A DNA stretch of 48,802 bases from a virus (lineage: Duplodnaviria > Heunggongvirae > Uroviricota > Caudoviricetes). Made by a program: the position numbers and the translations under genes. Within the stretch, counting starts at the first letter, position 1; every line of letters begins with the position of its first letter. Positions 3,297 to 47,334 of the stretch are shown here, in pieces. The DNA lies in the IMG/VR virus record IMGVR_UViG_2718218136_000008, positions 1 through 48,802 of that record. The stretch is one strand, 5' to 3'. The notes under the pieces were generated by a model, which saw only the letters and a program-made list of their open reading frames with translations, was not told the DNA's origin and did not search any database.

Positions 3297-3848
3297 ATGC
3301 ATGACAATATTTGGTTTACATATAAAGCACGTATCCAAGCGCACCATCGACTAGAATGGCTTGAAAAACACTCTCAATTTATCCTCGTTTGGTATGCTAT
3401 ATTGAGTGCGGTACTTTCAATTGTAACGTTGCGATTTCCAAAGGTTCTAGGAGATAATACAGATGTCGTTGCGGCGATACTTTCAGTGGCTCTACTGGGT
3501 ATTTCTCTGATCGTATCTAACCTAGATTTTCGTGGTCGAGCAATAGCCATGAGAAGGAATTATATTGCACTACAGCGACTCTATTTTGACATTACCACCA
3601 GTCAACAGTTATCTCTTGAACAGAAAGAAAAATATTTTAATTTGCTCAATGAGGTTGAGAATCACCGTGACATAGATGATAAAATTTCAAGGGTAACTCA
3701 AGTTGGACTTAAGACGAGGATCCCCACACAAAAAGAAAAAATAATTGTTATTTTATGGATATTACTTCGAATATTTATTACTGCCGCACTTTATATACTC
3801 CCATTAATATATCTTTGGATTGACTATGACTGCAAGCAGAATTTTTAA
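3297..3848 (+). CDS. small membrane protein, SLATT-like (N-terminal helix, two TM helices, helical region, C-terminal hydrophobic helix)
   Basis: 183-aa ORF, AAGGA RBS; hydrophobic segments FILVWYAILSAVLSIVTL, VVAAILSVALLGISLIVSNL, IIVILWILLRIFITAALYILPLIYLWI; 3' end overlaps the RT gene by 23 nt; low GC. Confidence 0.6.
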   Translation: MHDNIWFTYKARIQAHHRLEWLEKHSQFILVWYAILSAVLSIVTLRFPKVLGDNTDVVAAILSVALLGISLIVSNLDFRGRAIAMRRNYIALQRLYFDITTSQQLSLEQKEKYFNLLNEVENHRDIDDKISRVTQVGLKTRIPTQKEKIIVILWILLRIFITAALYILPLIYLWIDYDCKQNF

Positions 3849-5196
3849 AAAGTCATTCTCGAAAAAAAATCTTCTAAAAGTATACTCTGAAAAAATCAAA
3901 GAATCAGGAGCGATTGGCATAGATCGGATTCGCCCATCAAAACTTGATTTGACAATAAAAAATGAGATCACTTTCATTTTTGAAAAGGTTAATTCTGGCA
4001 ATTACAAATTTACAGCATATAAAGAAAAATTAATATCTAAAGGCGCTAACTCTACACCCAGACAGATTTCCATACCAACTGCTAGGGACAGAATTACTCT
4101 TAGAGCTCTCTGTGAATGCCTTACGGAAATATATCCTAAGTCCAGATTAAAACTACCACATACAGTAATTGACTCATTGAAAGAAGCATTAAACAACAGT
4201 CTATATGCTGAATATGCAAAAATAGATCTTAAAAGTTTCTATCCTTCAATTGAACATAAATTGATAATTAATGCAATAAAAAATAAAATTAGAAAAAAAG
4301 AAATTAGACAGTTAATAACATCATCATTAATCGTGCCTACTGTAAGTGGAACCACAGGAAGCAAAGGTATCCCTAATAATACCAGAGGAGTACCTCAGGG
4401 ATTAGCGATATCAAACATTTTAGCTGAAATATCACTATCTAATTTCGATGATGAAATCAATAAAATGCATGACATATGGTACATGCGATACGTTGATGAC
4501 ATTCTTATTTTAACACCAAAATATCAAGCAACAAAAATAGCTTCTCATATCATTGATAAGCTTCAATCATTAAATTTAAACCCACATCCATTAAATGAAG
4601 AGAACTCAAAATCCAAAGTAGGCAGCTTGGATGAAAGTTTCAACTTTTTGGGCTACCACATAAAAAATCGAGAATTATTGATAAAACATGAGAGCATTCT
4701 TAGATTTGAGTCATCCTTAGCAAAAATTTTTACTGCATATAGACACGCTCTACTACAAGCTAAAAATAAGCGCGATAAAGAACGAGCTGTTGCATATTGT
4801 CAGTGGAAACTAAATCTTAGAATTACGGGATGTGTGTTTGAAGGTAAACGATTGGGATGGGTATCGTACTTCTCACAAATAACGTCAACAGCTCAACTTC
4901 GAGCTGTTAATCATACGATCAATAATCTTATCCGCCGATTCGGCCTTTCATCAGAAATAAAACCAAAGTCTTTGATTAAAACTTTCTATGAACTCCGCAG
5001 GGGTAGAGCGGAGACTTTTAAATACATACCTAACTTTGACAATCTACATATATCTCAGAAACGAGAAATTGTTTCTATGTGGATAGGGAAAGAGAATGAA
5101 AAAAAACTTAGCAATAGTGAAATAGAGAGAAAATTTAAATTTAAAATTGCGAAATCAGTAAAAGAGCTTGAAGAGGACATTTCAGGGATATCATAG
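3826..5196 (+). CDS. reverse transcriptase (retron/UG-DRT-like prokaryotic RT)
   Basis: 456 aa from ATG 3826; RT motifs RQISIPTARDRITLRAL, DLKSFYPSI, GVPQGLAISNILAEISL, YMRYVDDILIL (YVDD), FNFLGYHI; ~180-aa C-terminal extension; low GC. Confidence 0.85.
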   Translation: MTASRIFKKSFSKKNLLKVYSEKIKESGAIGIDRIRPSKLDLTIKNEITFIFEKVNSGNYKFTAYKEKLISKGANSTPRQISIPTARDRITLRALCECLTEIYPKSRLKLPHTVIDSLKEALNNSLYAEYAKIDLKSFYPSIEHKLIINAIKNKIRKKEIRQLITSSLIVPTVSGTTGSKGIPNNTRGVPQGLAISNILAEISLSNFDDEINKMHDIWYMRYVDDILILTPKYQATKIASHIIDKLQSLNLNPHPLNEENSKSKVGSLDESFNFLGYHIKNRELLIKHESILRFESSLAKIFTAYRHALLQAKNKRDKERAVAYCQWKLNLRITGCVFEGKRLGWVSYFSQITSTAQLRAVNHTINNLIRRFGLSSEIKPKSLIKTFYELRRGRAETFKYIPNFDNLHISQKREIVSMWIGKENEKKLSNSEIERKFKFKIAKSVKELEEDISGIS

Positions 5197-13000: not shown

Positions 13001-13523
13001 GCAGCGGCAGGTTACCCACCACCACCGAGGCCAGATACTGCGAGGTGGTTTTGCCCTTAATGGTGATGTCTTTTTCCGTCACCCAGCCACCATTACGCTG
13101 GATCTGAACCAGCAGGCGGACTTCCGACGGATTCCGGTCCCCCTTTGAGGTGGTTTCCACCAGTGCCTGCACGCCGAAGGTAAAGCGCAGACGGTCGATG
13201 TTTGCAGACGTAATGGTGCGGGTGATCGGCGTGTCATATTTCACTTCCGTACCCAGCACCGTCTCGGAGCCGGAGGATTCAAACCCCTCCGGCGGTGTCT
13301 GCTCCTGCTCACCTGCCCGGAACACCACCGTGACACCGGAGATGTTGGTATTCCCCTCAGTGTCCAGCACCGGCGTACTGTTCAGCAGCACGCTTTTTAA
13401 TCCATCCACCGGACCTTCAACCGGCCCTTCGCTGATGGCATCGATCACACTCAGCAGCTGCGTGGACTTCAGGTTGTCCTTCGCTTCGCGCGGGGTATGC
13501 CCCTTACTGCTGCCTTTACCCAT
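10026..13523 (-). CDS. J: host-specificity / central tail fibre protein J
   Basis: 1165-aa ORF in lambda J position and size. Confidence 0.9.
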
Positions 13524-13583
13524 TCCTCACGCTCCATAAATGACAAAACCGCCCGCAGGCGGTTTCACATAAAAAATTTTGCA

Positions 13584-14231
13584 TCAGCGACCAATCACCA
13601 CAACCTGACCACCGTCCCCTTCGTCTGCCGTGCTGATCTCCTGAGAAACCACGCGAGACCCCACGCGCATTTCACCGTACAGAACAGGCAGAACATTGCC
13701 CTGGGCAACCATGTTATCCAGTGAGGAGAAATAGGTGTTCTGTTTGCCGTTATCTGTACTGGCTGCCGTGGGCGTCCTGGCTTTCGGTGCCAGCATCTGC
13801 GCCACTCCGCCCAGGATCATACTGGCCCCTGCCGCATACATGCCCGATACAGCCGCGGCCCCCAGCCAGCCCACAGGGTTCCACCATGCCACCGCAATCA
13901 GCGCCGCCCCAAGCACCACCTGAAACACACCGCCACTTTTAGCTCCCGCCAGACGCGGCACGATGTGGATCACGGCACCATTTGCCAGCGGCTCATTAAG
14001 ACGGGCAGATAATTCATTTTCGCCTGCATCACGCCCGGCAATGCGCACCTGATACCAGCCCTCATTCAGTTTCTGACGAAACGCCGGGATCTGCATGGCC
14101 AGCGCCCGGATGGCTTCGGACCCCGTTTTCACTCGAAGGTCGATGCGGCGGCCAAATCGTTGTAAATCCCCGTAAAGGCAGATGCGTGCCATGCCCGGTG
14201 ACGCCAGAGGGAGTGTGTGCGTCGCTGCCAT
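13584..14231 (-). CDS. I: tail assembly protein I
   Basis: 215-aa ORF in lambda I position, overlapping the K 3' end. Confidence 0.8.
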   Translation of the reverse strand: MAATHTLPLASPGMARICLYGDLQRFGRRIDLRVKTGSEAIRALAMQIPAFRQKLNEGWYQVRIAGRDAGENELSARLNEPLANGAVIHIVPRLAGAKSGGVFQVVLGAALIAVAWWNPVGWLGAAAVSGMYAAGASMILGGVAQMLAPKARTPTAASTDNGKQNTYFSSLDNMVAQGNVLPVLYGEMRVGSRVVSQEISTADEGDGGQVVVIGR

Positions 14232-37903: not shown

Positions 37904-38541
37904 GCGTTAGTTTCTCCACAACCAGAAGCAATCGACGCCACGACGCCCGGAGCTGCACACTCGCGGGCGTTACTCTTTTCCGGCGCACAAAAAACACGAA
38001 ATAACAGTGTTAAATGCTCCTGCCACTTCGCCATTACTTGGTAGCTGTTCTCTTCGATTTGCTCACGCTCAGCTTGGTCAATAACTCCATCAGCAGTTGC
38101 CTTGCGTAAGTACTGGGAATGCTTGCCAATCCATTCTATTGACTCCATCAGCCGCTGATTAATGTCACCATTGTCAATGTCATCAATGACCACCAGCGGC
38201 ACAAACACCCCATTACTACGACGGGCTATTGCATCCGTTACATGCCTGGTACCACTGGCATCCTGTAAAACCATGGCCCACTCAAGTGGAAAAATTTGAT
38301 CCCCACCGCTACGCAGTCTGTTATGCAATTGATCTTTTGCTGGGGTGATATCATCAGATTTATACAAACCAAGAATTTCTGCTGCTTCCTCATAGCCATG
38401 AGGTAAATCAGCAATCGTTCTTCGTATTGCTGCCACCAGCCATGCTGGTTGCTTATCAACTTTCCATTCAGGTTCTTTACCCACGTTTAAGCCCTCATAT
38501 CTGTGGTTTCTGTAAATCGATTTATCCATTAGATTTTTCAT
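37900..38541 (-). CDS. CII-like regulatory protein (possibly phage 186 CII/CP76 family)
   Basis: ~213 aa from ATG 38541; segment [23 protein letters not shown] resembles recalled CII-family pattern; immediately after cro. Confidence 0.5.
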
Positions 38542-38722
38542 AAAGCTCAGGTTTAAATGGCAACCGTCCGCAAGTTCTATATGCAGCCTCTGCTGCACGT
38601 CCTTTTGGAATTAACTGGCCAGGACGGTTTCGCCACTGATAAACGGCTTCAGTTGTTATGCCGAAAAAAGCAGCAACTTTCTCAATGCTGCCGAAGTAGC
38701 TTTCGATATCGTCAGTCGTCAT
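38522..38722 (-). CDS. cro: Cro-like HTH repressor
   Basis: 66-aa ORF with HTH (KVAAFFGITTEAVYQWRNR), divergent from cI across an operator region. Confidence 0.75.
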   Translation of the reverse strand: MTTDDIESYFGSIEKVAAFFGITTEAVYQWRNRPGQLIPKGRAAEAAYRTCGRLPFKPELYEKSNG

Positions 38723-38819
38723 ATGCCCTCCAAACTAAGTTTTATTAGATGTTAATTATCAATCTATCTTAGGTCAATAAAAACTAAGATTACTTAGTAA
38801 TTAAAGAAATGGTGCTCCT
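38723..38819. promoter_or_regulatory. cI-cro intergenic operator/promoter region (OR-like)
   Basis: Perfect palindrome CTAAG-ATTA-CTTAG (38784..38797) and related CTAAG-N5-TTAG (38735..38748). Confidence 0.5.
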
Positions 38820-39446
38820 ATGGAAACGGTTGGTCAGCGTATAAAAGCTCTGAGAAGAGTTACCAGAACGTCCCAGAAAGAATTGGGTAAATTTTGTGGA
38901 GTAAGTGACGTTGCTGTGGGGTACTGGGAGAAAGACATCAATGTCCCTGGTGGGGAAGCACTTTCAAAATTAGCGAAGTTCTTCAATACGTCAATAGATT
39001 ACATTCTTTATGGTGCGGAGTTTGAAGGCAAACTCGTCACAAACATGCGCAGAGTTCCTGTAATCTCGTGGGTTCAGGCTGGGCAGTTTACTGAGTGCAG
39101 GACAGCAGAAGTGTTTAGTGAAGTAGACAAGTGGGTAGATACATCATTAAAGATTGGTGATAACTCATTTGCATTGGAGGTTAAAGGCGACTCCATGACT
39201 AACCCTAACGGCCTCCCAACAATACCAGAAGGCGCAACAGTGATTGTAGATCCTGATGCAGAACCCCGGCATGGAAAAATAGTCATCGCTAGACTTGATG
39301 GAACAAACGAAGCCACAGTAAAAAAATTAGTTATCGATGGCCCTCAAAAGTTTTTAGTGCCATTAAATCCCCGGTACCCCAACATCCCGATCAATGGTAA
39401 TTGCCTCATCATTGGTGTAGTCAAAGGAGTTCAATACGAACTCTAG
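38820..39446 (+). CDS. cI: CI-type repressor (HTH plus S24 LexA-like autopeptidase)
   Basis: 208-aa ORF; N-terminal HTH (QKELGKFCGVSDVAVGYWEKD), C-terminal GDSM…K peptidase motif. Confidence 0.9.
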   Translation: METVGQRIKALRRVTRTSQKELGKFCGVSDVAVGYWEKDINVPGGEALSKLAKFFNTSIDYILYGAEFEGKLVTNMRRVPVISWVQAGQFTECRTAEVFSEVDKWVDTSLKIGDNSFALEVKGDSMTNPNGLPTIPEGATVIVDPDAEPRHGKIVIARLDGTNEATVKKLVIDGPQKFLVPLNPRYPNIPINGNCLIIGVVKGVQYEL

Positions 39447-39469
39447 CCCCCCTTTTCTCTAACCAAAAC

Positions 39470-39530
39470 ACCGAACTAAGAAAAGTTTGGTGTTTTCTCT
39501 TGCCATCAAAACTAAGTTAAGTTAGATTTT
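39470..39530. promoter_or_regulatory. candidate OL-like operator region downstream of cI
   Basis: CTAAG half-sites at 39476..39480 and 39512..39525 (CTAA-GTTAAG-TTAG); inverted repeat AAAACACCGAACT/AGTTTGGTGTTTT. Confidence 0.3.
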
Positions 39531-39680
39531 ATATCAAAGATAACGAACAGGCAGGACGCCCACGAAGTAGCCGCCTGGGGCATATGAAGTCCAGGATGAT
39601 TCGTTAGCAACAAAAAAAGCGCCCTATAGGACGCTTCGCTCTTTAACAATCCTGGTATCCCCGTAACAAAAGAGGGTTCT

Positions 39681-39974
39681 ATGGTCATATTCTGTGCTTA
39701 CGTTCATCCTAATGGATTTTTTATCAGCACCAACCAACAAGACGAATTCTGGATTCTACTTAGTAAGCAGATCGGATGGGGACGATTCTGTCTAATCCGA
39801 CCAGAATCAGAATTTACAGAGAATGGAGGGCTTTTTGAATTACGTGAAATACGTCCGGCAGATGGTCAAGCCCCTGACCAAGTAATCGAATCGTCAGCTG
39901 TTTTATGGCGTCGGCAGGAAGCGTTCGAAGCTGAGAAAGTAATTTCTTCTTATCTTCAGTCGTGGCAGAAGTAG
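39681..39974 (+). CDS. hypothetical protein (uncertain; overlaps convergent 167-aa ORF)
   Basis: 97-aa ORF with AGAGGG RBS; no arginine-rich N-like motif. Confidence 0.25.
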   Translation: MVIFCAYVHPNGFFISTNQQDEFWILLSKQIGWGRFCLIRPESEFTENGGLFELREIRPADGQAPDQVIESSAVLWRRQEAFEAEKVISSYLQSWQK

Positions 39975-40317
39975 AACTATTGATGATACGTTCAAGTTCA
40001 CAGAGAGTCTCATCATGCAATCTTATTGTCATAATCCCAAGAATAGCTTTAAGACCTCCATCATCACGAATGAAATCAATTCCATCTTTAGTAATTCTTA
40101 ATTCAGGAATATTTATATTTATGCCATCCAAGTAATAATCAAGAGCATTCTTAATCAAGCCATGTTCTTCGAGATAAATTAAGTTCGAAATTAGGACATT
40201 ATCATCTCCAAATGCGTCACGAACAGACTGCAACGCATCATCAGAAATTTCATAAGGATGAGCATCATACAGTATTTGTAACAACTGCCTTTGTGCACTT
40301 CTATCAAATTTGTCCAT
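39814..40317 (-). CDS. hypothetical low-GC accessory protein in the immunity region
   Basis: 167-aa ORF; low GC relative to flanks; opposite orientation to cI and early-left genes; no recognised motif. Confidence 0.45.
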   Translation of the reverse strand: MDKFDRSAQRQLLQILYDAHPYEISDDALQSVRDAFGDDNVLISNLIYLEEHGLIKNALDYYLDGININIPELRITKDGIDFIRDDGGLKAILGIMTIRLHDETLCELERIINSSTSATTEDKKKLLSQLRTLPADAIKQLTIRLLGQGLDHLPDVFHVIQKALHSL

Positions 40318-40595
40318 CTTAAATAATCACCATGTTATTGGGGGTATCAAGATTAACCGAATCCTTGTTGTTGGGGAATAACCAGGTCCACCTCGCCTGA
40401 TGTGGCTAAAAGCAGGCACATAACAGCTAAGTATTTTCAACCAGAGAGAATCCTTAGCGTTGTGGTGAATGCGGCTCAGCGCACGCGGGTTAAGGTTGAG
40501 GCTGACAGTCGACCTTCTGTGGATACCCACCCGCCTGGTGTGCAACCTTCGCCAGGCACCGGGAGGCACCCGGCACCACAACAGCCACTGCTTTG

Positions 40596-40641
40596 GCGGT
40601 ACCAGTTTGTACACTTGCTTCCGGCTGGTACCGCTCTTTTT
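40596..40641 (+). terminator. intrinsic terminator upstream of the yfdP-like gene
   Basis: Perfect 10-bp inverted repeat GCGGTACCAG/CTGGTACCGC with 19-nt loop followed by TCTTTTT. Confidence 0.5.
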
Positions 40642-40730
40642 ACAAAACAGAGAAGAGCATCACCGGACGACGGGCTCATAACCCAATCCATCCGGGCGGC
40701 TGCCACCGCAGGTGTTCTTCTCTGTTTTGT
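40642..40730. repeat. 15-bp perfect inverted repeat with 59-nt GC-rich loop
   Basis: ACAAAACAGAGAAGA (40642..40656) and TCTTCTCTGTTTTGT (40716..40730). Confidence 0.5.
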
Positions 40731-46345: not shown

Positions 46346-46765
46346 TTACTCATCATCAATAGATGATACGCAATATTTATTTTTAAATTTAAGGTTCTTT
46401 GGCGTAACTTCATCAGATATATCAAAACCGTCCAGAATTCTATTGAATGTAGCTTCTGGCATATCATCATGAACGGAAATCTCACCCGATCGCTGCTTTC
46501 TAACCATGTTATCCACTCGCCAAATTATAGCTTCAGCGTAAACAACATAACTTGGATGCTTGATAAAGCGATGATCACCAGAATTCAAGACGCAAGACGG
46601 ATCGTGGGGGACACCATCCTTGATACTAGAAATATTAACAACTAAAACACAATAACAATCGTTAACGGGGTAATAAACAGGATCATTACAAATCACATGA
46701 AGATGATTGCATGGCCCAGTTGGGGCAAGCACAGTTCCTTTCCTGTATGGCTGATAATCCGTCAT
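46346..46765 (-). CDS. hypothetical protein, candidate toxin/effector partner of the Panacea-like gene
   Basis: 139-aa ORF; start overlaps upstream gene stop (ATGA); no recognised motif; low GC. Confidence 0.5.
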   Translation of the reverse strand: MTDYQPYRKGTVLAPTGPCNHLHVICNDPVYYPVNDCYCVLVVNISSIKDGVPHDPSCVLNSGDHRFIKHPSYVVYAEAIIWRVDNMVRKQRSGEISVHDDMPEATFNRILDGFDISDEVTPKNLKFKNKYCVSSIDDE

Positions 46766-47334
46766 GATAATTGCAAAGAAAATTCCTTAAGTTTCTGAGA
46801 TTCTTCCATTTTGCCAATTATACGATTAGCCTCATCCTCGCTTTTACCCTCACTGATCAGCATTTCTTTCAGGTCTATAGGCTTACGAGAATTGCCAGGA
46901 TTGTGCCACTCTGGACAAACGCTTTCTAAATGCGTCATGTTTGCGAGATCAAATCGGTTCATATGCCCATACAGAGAATAGATTTCATCTAAAATCCGGA
47001 TATCTGCACGGCTCAACTCATCAAAGACCTCGTCTGCATCCATTTCCCTCGGATCTGAACGCAACAACACATCATGCCCGTTCGTCTCTATCAAGTTGTA
47101 CCAGTAGTCACCAATGCCTTCAGCCTTACCACGAATCAAGTTCAGCGTATTCGACATGACTGGACCAAATTTCATAGAGTAAAGGCTATCTTCGCCGATC
47201 ATCCTGCCATGCTTCAAAATCGACTTGCGGTTAGACAGATAGAGCAGCTTCATCAATTTCAGATATGCCATGCGCCCACCTCGCTTAAGAAGTAGGTATG
47301 CAGCCATTTGAGCTACTTTTTCTTCGCAAAACAT
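46762..47334 (-). CDS. Panacea-domain (DUF4065)-like protein, candidate antitoxin
   Basis: 190-aa ORF with KLMKLLYLSNR...FGPV pattern recalled for Panacea/SocA-like proteins; GAGG RBS; low GC. Confidence 0.5.
   Translation of the reverse strand: MFCEEKVAQMAAYLLLKRGGRMAYLKLMKLLYLSNRKSILKHGRMIGEDSLYSMKFGPVMSNTLNLIRGKAEGIGDYWYNLIETNGHDVLLRSDPREMDADEVFDELSRADIRILDEIYSLYGHMNRFDLANMTHLESVCPEWHNPGNSRKPIDLKEMLISEGKSEDEANRIIGKMEESQKLKEFSLQLS

Follow-up and report, generated by a model that had tools for sequence, protein, structure and literature searches.

The immunity region of an Escherichia coli prophage carries two convergent genes that run through each other's 3' ends in a long coding overlap, and both are almost certainly real genes. 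The DNA analyzed, called the window throughout, is the whole stretch of 48,802 nucleotides (nt) of the IMG/VR record IMGVR_UViG_2718218136_000008 (positions 1 to 48,802), an SfV/CPS-53-like lambdoid E. coli prophage integrated beside a dusA fragment. We refer to the 167-amino acid (aa) open reading frame (ORF) on the minus strand as gene A and to the 97-aa ORF on the plus strand as gene B. Conservation extends to both genes and to their overlap, purifying selection acts on the two genes, B keeps its orientation relative to the neighboring operon, and the cassette formed by the two genes is mobile. On the sequence evidence, both ORFs are full length and the pair, not A by itself, is the unit of interest. 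Our best explanation as a whole is that of a two-gene cassette in which A is a prophage defense protein and B provides self-immunity against it, a reading that we place close to, though somewhat short of, an even call. The two genes and their overlap are as follows.

39681–39974, plus strand: gene B, 97 aa, first ORF past the putative PL promoter, without annotation in RefSeq
39814–40317, minus strand: gene A, 167 aa
39814–39974: 3'-3' coding overlap of 161 nt, B codons 45–97 against A codons 115–167

Evidence for a second coding gene opposite A

About 119 loci were fetched via homologues of A, and the counts for B are based on 102 of them, all retrieved through A. A homologue of B lies in the same convergent, overlapping position in 89 of the 102 loci by tblastn with an open frame, and in 93 of the 102 by a hidden Markov model search. 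These homologues are 30–76% identical to B (tblastn), even at loci where A is only ~40% identical; they are 96–118 aa long, overlap A by 152–218 nt and, in 71 of the 89 loci, start 133–139 nt past the A stop codon. Over the first 44 codons of B, which A does not cover, pairwise nucleotide differences are 0.33/0.24/0.56 at codon positions 1/2/3, i.e., the third position changes most and the second least, as is typical of protein-coding sequence; within the overlap they are flat (0.19/0.21/0.18). Within the spacer between the A stop and the B start, the B frame is free of stop codons in 51 of 52 distinct sequences, and those other frames that are ever open are so in 2–8. The start codon of B is ATG in 77 of 89 loci, and of 49 distinct upstream regions 25 contain a core Shine-Dalgarno sequence, where the background is 6%; in the window, AGAGGG is located 4 nt upstream of the B ATG. 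Where no B could be detected opposite an A homologue, no homologous antisense ORF is present either, so the sequence of A alone does not hold the B frame open.

At the protein level, the motifs FW, GWGRF, and VLW of B are kept at 30–50% identity. The AlphaFold (AF2) model of B, built from an input of 33 database sequences, is compact, with five β-strands followed by a C-terminal helix and a predicted local distance difference test score (pLDDT) of 83, and no known fold matches it. Pfam, NCBIfam, and PADLOC gave no match to B above threshold, PHROG has no family for it, and among 5.8 billion proteins only seven matches were found by sequence and 45 by profile. In RefSeq PGAP, and with nearly every gene caller, A is the only one of the two to be annotated; B is evidently dropped because of its ~53-codon overlap with A. 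The loci without a detectable B (L105, L106, L107, L109, L110, L113, L118, L119, and L086) are among the most divergent A homologues and tend to be co-directional with their neighbors; their hosts are Lysobacter, Janthinobacterium, Alicycliphilus, Moraxella, Snodgrassella, and others. They may represent a B-less subfamily, or B may have diverged there beyond detection.

The overlap itself carries a second and separate trace of B in the codons of A. The two frames are arranged in such a way that B codon positions 1/2/3 lie opposite A positions 1/3/2, so a silent third-position change in one gene falls on the second position of the other. Synonymous change in A was measured on pairs of A sequences 60–97% identical, as the fraction of same-amino-acid codons for which a different codon is used. 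This fraction is 0.57 in codons 1–112 and 0.16 in codons 115–166; in bins of eight codons it goes from 0.43–0.63 down to 0.08–0.24, from about codon 118–121, where B ends. Each of the 32 pairs that have no locus in common shows the lower value inside the overlap (Wilcoxon p = 8e-7; the pairs are not fully independent phylogenetically). A first-pass annotation of the window, made from the sequence alone, had noticed the ~160-nt overlap of A with a convergent 97-aa ORF at 39681–39974 on the plus strand, which is correct, and had concluded that at most one of the two could be full length. That conclusion is refuted by the retention of B in 93 of 102 loci, by its coding periodicity, and by the synonymous suppression in A.

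Gene A and its family

The sequence of A matches the PHROG family phrog_3983 (E = 2.6e-59) with residues 1–165 on profile positions 1–164 of 165. This family is without an assigned function, and the RefSeq record for A is the hypothetical protein WP_000357060.1. A profile search over 1.8 billion representative proteins gave 1,135 A-family clusters at 50% identity, and among the matches listed nearly all are 155–175 aa long and aligned end to end. On these sequence comparisons, A is a standalone, single-architecture, full-length family and not a remnant, because its members are ~165 aa long and match from end to end. Had A been a degraded gene, as the first-pass annotation allowed, homologues of such uniform length are not what one would see. 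The coordinates given there for the 167-aa ORF are exact, and an ORF of this length is far beyond chance.

In its structural model, A has an N-terminal winged helix of the DUF2513/YjcQ/PadR type (about residues 1–88) and a helical C-terminal part, and every structural neighbor is a winged helix-turn-helix (wHTH) DNA-binding protein. The best-conserved residues are R6, Q9, N45, Y48, H52, T76, G79, D81, D86, G87, and G88, and the motif G-x-D-F-x-x-D-D-G-G-L is invariant. The protein is acidic (isoelectric point, pI, 5.0), with a net charge of −10 on the winged-helix domain, which is unusual for a domain of this kind; across the family the median net charge of the N-domain is −5 and the median pI of the whole protein is 5.6, and neither the recognition helix nor the wing has conserved basic residues. 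No model of Pfam, NCBIfam, or PADLOC matches A above threshold. DUF2513 and YjcQ are not reported by Pfam for A itself at E ≤ 0.1; among 131 relatives, DUF2513 was found at E ≤ 0.01 in 37 and YjcQ in six (best E = 4.5e-6), which points to a distant relationship confined to the N-domain of A. Pfam gave no PadR or MarR match, and a sequence search of the PDB returned nothing for A alone and only a PadR chain for the A family profile (E = 0.68). The earlier statement that A has no recognizable motif thus stands with respect to Pfam, NCBIfam, and PADLOC models above threshold, and not with respect to the modeled winged helix and the weak DUF2513 signal in 37 of the 131 relatives.

An exchangeable cassette in the immunity region

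Genes A and B sit between the cI repressor gene and the early-left genes, in the following setting.

38522–38722, minus strand: cro
38820–39446, plus strand: cI, LexA-like repressor with HTH_3 and Peptidase_S24 domains
39475–39490, plus strand: OL-type operator ACTAAGAAAAGTTTGG, from repeat comparison
39500–39528, plus strand: PL-like promoter TTGCCA-17-TAGATT, from a consensus scan, overlapped by the OL copies
39511–39526, plus strand: OL-type operator ACTAAGTTAAGTTAGA, from repeat comparison
39670–40333: exchangeable cassette of 664 bp with genes A and B
After the ORF pair, plus strand: yfdP, yfdQ, and yfdR, the early-left genes

Operator copies of the ACTAAG-N4-CTTAGT type are present at 38734 and 38783 (OR, between cro and cI) and at 39475 and 39511 (OL, past cI), and the repeat families D1–D4 and I1 tie the latter two copies to the former, i.e., to the cro-cI intergenic operators. 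The TTGCCA-17-TAGATT site is predicted to be PL on the basis of its sequence and position, and a transcript starting at this putative promoter would enter gene B directly. A hairpin resembling a cI terminator (AAAACACCGAACT...AGTTTGGTGTTTT, 39465–39496, plus strand) holds the OL-type copy at 39475–39490 in its loop and 3' arm; this stretch of sequence is therefore common to the repressor-binding and the termination signals.

The borders of the cassette were defined by blastn against phage Kati, in which similarity to the window stops at 39669 and returns at 40334, i.e., 11 nt before the B ATG and 16 nt past the A ATG. Between the same joints, Kati and SfIV have a 144-aa minus-strand ORF together with a YdfC-like plus-strand ORF, PhiR49_1 has a 242-aa minus-strand ORF, SfII a 63-aa ORF, SfV the plus-strand orf33, and mEp460_4F5 a plus-strand HTH_17 protein; no match to a known defense family was found for any of these alternative cargoes. 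Among 5,426 complete E. coli genomes, 2,814 have the flanks and 75 the full cassette; E. coli AR_0085 and 1517k carry a locus 100% identical to that of the window. The GC content of A is 37.7%, below that of the left flank (43.5%), the right flank (53.9%), and the whole window (49.9%), and only 6% of the 504-nt stretches of the window equal its AT-richness. As for a moron, the cassette is missing from close relatives and deviant in composition, and its promoter and terminator are recognized at the consensus level only. The Kati/SfIV cassette (848–1502 of the Kati sequence) was considered as an analogous obligate pair, for its 68-aa plus-strand YdfC-family ORF converges on the 144-aa minus-strand ORF with a 29-nt overlap; it was rejected because many phages have the YdfC-like gene and lack the 144-aa one, so that the two are not obligately linked.

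Most of what the first-pass annotation said about the surroundings of A is borne out by these comparisons: A lies between the operator-like region 3' of cI and the early-left genes (OL, PL, and yfdPQR were all found there), it is oriented opposite to cI, it is lower in GC than both flanks, and it is a moron-like accessory gene whose place is taken by other cargo in Kati/SfIV, PhiR49_1, SfV, SfII, and mEp460_4F5, in the kind of place where lambdoid phages keep exclusion or defense genes. As an interpretation, an accessory low-GC gene in a defense-type slot holds, and the restriction to a single full-length gene is the part that was given up.

Homologues of A are found at other sites too: after cI in AbIPP1, between Rz and terminase in PhiR49_2, and, in GF-2, after an Arc/Mnt-like gene and opposite arc-ant. 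The commonest neighbors in 47 representative loci are cI-type repressors (15 of 47) and endolysin or lysis-terminase junction genes. When all neighbors within 3.5 kb in these 47 loci were clustered, no conserved partner other than B emerged; the clustering otherwise gave slot markers only, i.e., cI-type repressor, endolysin, Rz, and HNH/terminase.

Transcription signals and gene orientation

Candidate signals for the transcription of A, and a repeat that surrounds the cassette, are listed here.

40350–40323, minus strand: promoter-like site for A, TTGATA-16-GATTAT, from a consensus scan, ending 5 nt before the A ATG
39637–39616, minus strand: terminator-like hairpin and U-run, GAAGCGTCCTATAGGGCGCTTT TTTTGTTG, past the B start codon
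39644–39667, plus strand: left arm of an inverted repeat, TAACAATCCTGGTATCCCCGTAAC, just upstream of the B ribosome-binding site
40337–40355, minus strand: right arm of the inverted repeat, TAATCTTGATACCCCCAAT, overlapped by the A promoter-like site

The promoter-like site of A recurs as T(T/G)GATA-16-GA(T/G)TA(T/A) at the same position in two Salmonella loci (L008 and L010), which are set in another prophage background, and as a variant in a Mangrovibacter locus (L012). Its −35 element is situated in a flank common to phages with other minus-strand cargo. We infer its activity from the consensus; it would imply a very short leader or a leaderless mRNA. The hairpin at 39637–39616, which is in the left flank shared with Kati and SfIV, is the sole minus-strand terminator after A and likely ends the A transcript. 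Because it lies beyond the B start, the A mRNA would be antisense to all of B. The 3' untranslated region (UTR) of A folds somewhat better than shuffled sequences (z = −2.1, a modest value), and with no Rfam family there it was not retained as a structured RNA.

B tends to follow the direction of the genes around it. Of 33 representative loci with B, 29 have a gene on the B side that runs in the direction of B; in 20 of 34, both neighbors do so and are thus antisense to A. A hairpin followed by a T-run is present on the B strand, 16–27 nt before the B ATG, in 29 of 68 distinct upstream regions. This position leaves no room for a promoter, so transcription would get to B there only by reading through, as happens when the lytic operon is antiterminated.

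The inverted repeat, which is imperfect (consensus TAATCTGGATATCCCCAAC, in which GGATATCC is a palindrome), is located 20–45 nt upstream of both start codons, and a motif of the TAATCTGGATATCCCCAAC type is also found upstream of both genes in the Salmonella loci L008 and L010 and the Mangrovibacter locus L012. Apart from a second copy, CCCCAACAAC, at 40367–40379, it occurs nowhere else in the window. The repeat was rejected as a part of the cargo: since a degenerate form is present in Kati and SfIV beside unrelated cargo, it belongs to the slot, where it may be a recombination joint or a shared regulatory site. On the right flank, a match to the full STnc100 model of Rfam (window 40441–40643, plus strand; 36 bits, below the gathering threshold of 47; E = 2.5e-6) is GC-rich and structured and ends in a hairpin and U-run just upstream of yfdP. 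This STnc100-like element is situated in the conserved right flank of the cassette and is divergent from the A promoter-like site; it could be a small RNA, or it could serve the early-left operon as a leader or terminator.

Proposed function and alternative explanations

We propose that A is most likely made in the lysogen from its own promoter, reading against the early-left operon, with a transcript that probably spans all of B up to the terminator at 39637–39616. Production of B would have to wait for the end of cI repression or, in other phages, for read-through by an antiterminated lytic operon. With colliding transcription units and complementary RNAs, expression of each gene should depress that of the other; A would then be a lysogeny-phase product and B a lytic-phase product. 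We regard such antagonistic expression, partitioned over the life cycle, as reasonably probable. As for what the proteins do, A may be a prophage-encoded defense or exclusion protein with superinfecting phages as its presumed target, and B its cognate self-immunity protein, which would neutralize A by binding, aided by antisense RNA and transcriptional interference, and in this way would let the prophage finish its own lytic cycle. This functional assignment is made by analogy, because Tab/anti-Tab, Tai/Ati, TERi, and Tha/Ith have the same layout, and it is put forward tentatively, as an attractive possibility that we would not yet call probable.

Several observations speak against the proposal. 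Both A and B are acidic, so a tight complex between them is not obviously favored, and proteins with a winged helix are more commonly regulators that bind DNA than effectors. In hhalign comparisons of the A family with Tab and TaiEcA, and of B with anti-Tab and AtiEcA, the probabilities are 0.1–0.3% (0.1–0.2% for Tab/anti-Tab), with TerI and Tha outside the comparison; no PADLOC model, prophage systems included, matches A or B. Promoter-like consensus sites are no commoner than in shuffled sequences (five found, 5.8 expected), about one in four of the B-bearing loci has neighbors that do not all run in the direction of B, and B goes undetected in 9 of the 102 loci.

The winged helix leads to a quite different explanation, which we consider unlikely: the pair may be an accessory regulatory switch, in which A is a PadR/MarR-type repressor of phage or host promoters in the lysogen and B is an early lytic anti-regulator. 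A might act at the GGATATCC-bearing inverted repeats, and the pair would tune the lysis-lysogeny decision or host physiology without any role in defense. The structural neighbors of A, all of them wHTH DNA-binding proteins, and its weak sequence links to PadR, DUF2513, and YjcQ are what one would expect of such a switch, as are the palindromic motif 20–45 nt upstream of both starts in four diverged loci, the cI-type repressor adjoining about a third of the representative loci, and the position of the A gene of GF-2 after an Arc/Mnt-like gene, opposite arc-ant. However, the wHTH domain is acidic family-wide and has no conserved basic residues where it would touch DNA, the repeat belongs to the slot, as its presence beside the unrelated cargo of Kati and SfIV indicates, and not to A, and the pair also occurs at lysis-terminase junctions, far from switch regions.

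Somewhat less probable still, in our judgment, is a reversed toxin-antitoxin (TA) or abortive infection module, in which B would be a growth-inhibiting effector and A its antidote, acting both as protein and as antisense transcript, so that phage shut-off of A frees B. The two genes are small, mobile, and frequent in prophages, many type II antitoxins are built like A, with a DNA-binding-type N-domain and a helical C-domain, B would be kept silent by the terminators directly upstream of it, and prophage type I TA loci such as txpA/RatA and bsrG/SR4 are typically convergent with a 3' overlap. Against this, B would by its position be a bulk-expressed gene of a lytic operon, and its fold has no known match. 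Finally, only A might code for protein, and the conservation on the opposite strand would then reflect an RNA element (antisense RNA, 3' UTR, or terminator) in addition to constraint on the C-terminus of A. Annotation of just A by RefSeq PGAP and nearly all gene callers, and the slightly better than shuffled folding of the A 3' UTR, agree with it, and synonymous suppression by itself cannot tell RNA from protein constraint. We nevertheless find it very improbable: the 44 non-overlapping codons of B change mainly at third positions, the B frame is the sole frame kept open through the spacer with its start codon and Shine-Dalgarno sequence conserved, and the three motifs persist in a protein whose 33-sequence alignment gives a compact and well-scored fold.

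If the defense and self-immunity proposal is true, A and B would add a new and very widespread family to the prophage defense systems, one with its own counter-defense on the opposite strand, and members of it would already be in prophages of clinical E. coli, Salmonella, Klebsiella, Pseudomonas, and Acinetobacter. Regardless of function, B is a conserved coding gene that gene callers, PHROGs, Pfam, and RefSeq have missed. In bacteria, where examples of dual-strand coding are few and contested, the pair is a clear instance of it that comparison supports strongly. What is unusual in A/B is the length of the coding overlap and the depth of its conservation, as well as the near absence of B from annotation. 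Other single-gene morons annotated as hypothetical proteins may hide partners. It is a more speculative thought, and one we hold doubtful, that the coding overlap itself is the device, making the two proteins inseparable by recombination and giving a convergent lysogeny/lytic toggle that is portable into any phage operon; B would then be among the most widely conserved antisense-overlapping genes of bacteria and phages, spread over gamma- and beta-proteobacterial prophages opposite >1,000 A clusters, missed by annotation, and of a previously unseen small fold.

Other loci in the window

Two further loci near the ends of the window may be of interest. The stretch lowest in GC (about 30%; 3297–5196, plus strand) encodes a 183-aa SLATT_5 two-transmembrane effector-type protein, whose gene overlaps the start of a reverse transcriptase gene (RVT_1, 458 aa) and adjoins the integrase (1668–2765) and the dusA fragment (542–1579); it looks like retron or DRT-type defense cargo at the prophage end. 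Near the other window end, a SocA/Panacea-domain antitoxin-like protein (46762–47334, minus strand) is encoded with a 139-aa ORF directly downstream (46346–46765) in a 4-nt overlap, and the two may be a PanA-type TA pair.

Comparison with known systems

Our literature search, which most subscription journals lay outside, found no paper naming the A protein or the A/B pair, and nothing relevant on WP_000357060, DUF2513, or YjcQ; GiPD474 (an ATPase) and HepS (HEPN) came up as candidates and are unrelated proteins. A/B is not a type II TA module by its layout, i.e., it is neither a co-directional bicistronic operon nor a carrier of a toxin of known fold. With respect to the PadR-like wHTH proteins, the 88 N-terminal residues of A are modeled in the wHTH fold and have the pattern 'Y-L-x-x-H-G-L-I ... 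T-x-x-G-x-D-F-L'; in contrast to DUF2513, YjcQ, and PadR, the domain in A is acidic, and its DDGGL motif and C-terminal helical domain are without a counterpart there.

In prophage type I TA loci (txpA/RatA, bsrG/SR4), convergent transcripts overlap at their 3' ends by ~75–125 nt with antisense control. Their products are a non-coding RNA and a short hydrophobic toxin, whereas A and B are conserved soluble proteins of 167 and 97 aa. Protection genes expressed in the lysogen beside the repressor or immunity region, as A would be, include BstA/aba (PMC8585504), RexAB of lambda, and SieA/SieB of P22; their orientation relative to cI differs from that of A. BstA also needs a cognate self-immunity determinant, and this is a DNA element inside the gene and not a protein.

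TERi of the Listeria phage phi10403S is closer in layout. The gene for TerI runs against the early lytic module in which it lies and shares sequence with an ORF of the other strand; self-immunity comes from genes of the early operon (anti-TerI1,2), and unrelated cargo genes alternate behind a promoter that is conserved (bioRxiv 10.1101/2025.02.27.640495); the A/B slot likewise swaps its cargo behind a promoter-like site that is kept. The differences are the Gram-positive host, the small size of TerI (65 aa), and self-immunity genes that flank and are not the overlapping ORF. In Tai/Ati of phi80 and related elements (PMC11364771) and in Tha/Ith of S. aureus prophages (PMC11087260), both of them described as non-contiguous operons, the defense gene is antisense inside a lytic operon that also bears the counter-defense gene. 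Tai/Ati of phi80 is a non-contiguous operon in which late transcription and Q expression lower Tai (PMC11364771), and the A/B pair of PhiR49_2 occupies the same lysis-to-cos slot as tai/ati in phi80; tai and ati diverge and overlap by 20 nt at their 5' ends, whereas A and B are convergent.

The nearest parallel in architecture appears to be Tab/anti-Tab of the Pseudomonas phage JBD26, two small genes inserted in a lytic operon. According to PMC10884400, tab has its own promoter, the anti-Tab gene (atab) is in the late operon, the anti-Tab product binds Tab, and the pair is dispensable for the phage; the counter-defense gene is co-directional with the lytic operon and the defense gene is opposite to it, as proposed here for B and A. 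In the deposited annotation of JBD26, atab (gp30, 13377–13628, plus strand) and tab (gp31, 13582–13833, minus strand) are convergent small genes with a 47-nt 3' overlap, an overlap that the section of PMC10884400 consulted does not mention, and this makes the architectural parallel with A/B firmer. Tab and anti-Tab are 83 aa each; A has 167 aa and a winged helix, and the A/B overlap is ~160 nt long and conserved across several orders of Proteobacteria, so that the likeness is one of architecture. With A antisense to the lytic operon, and B co-directional with that operon and embedded in it, the A/B pair by analogy matches the opposite-strand class of prophage systems for defense and counter-defense in its architecture and is not a sequence member of a characterized family.

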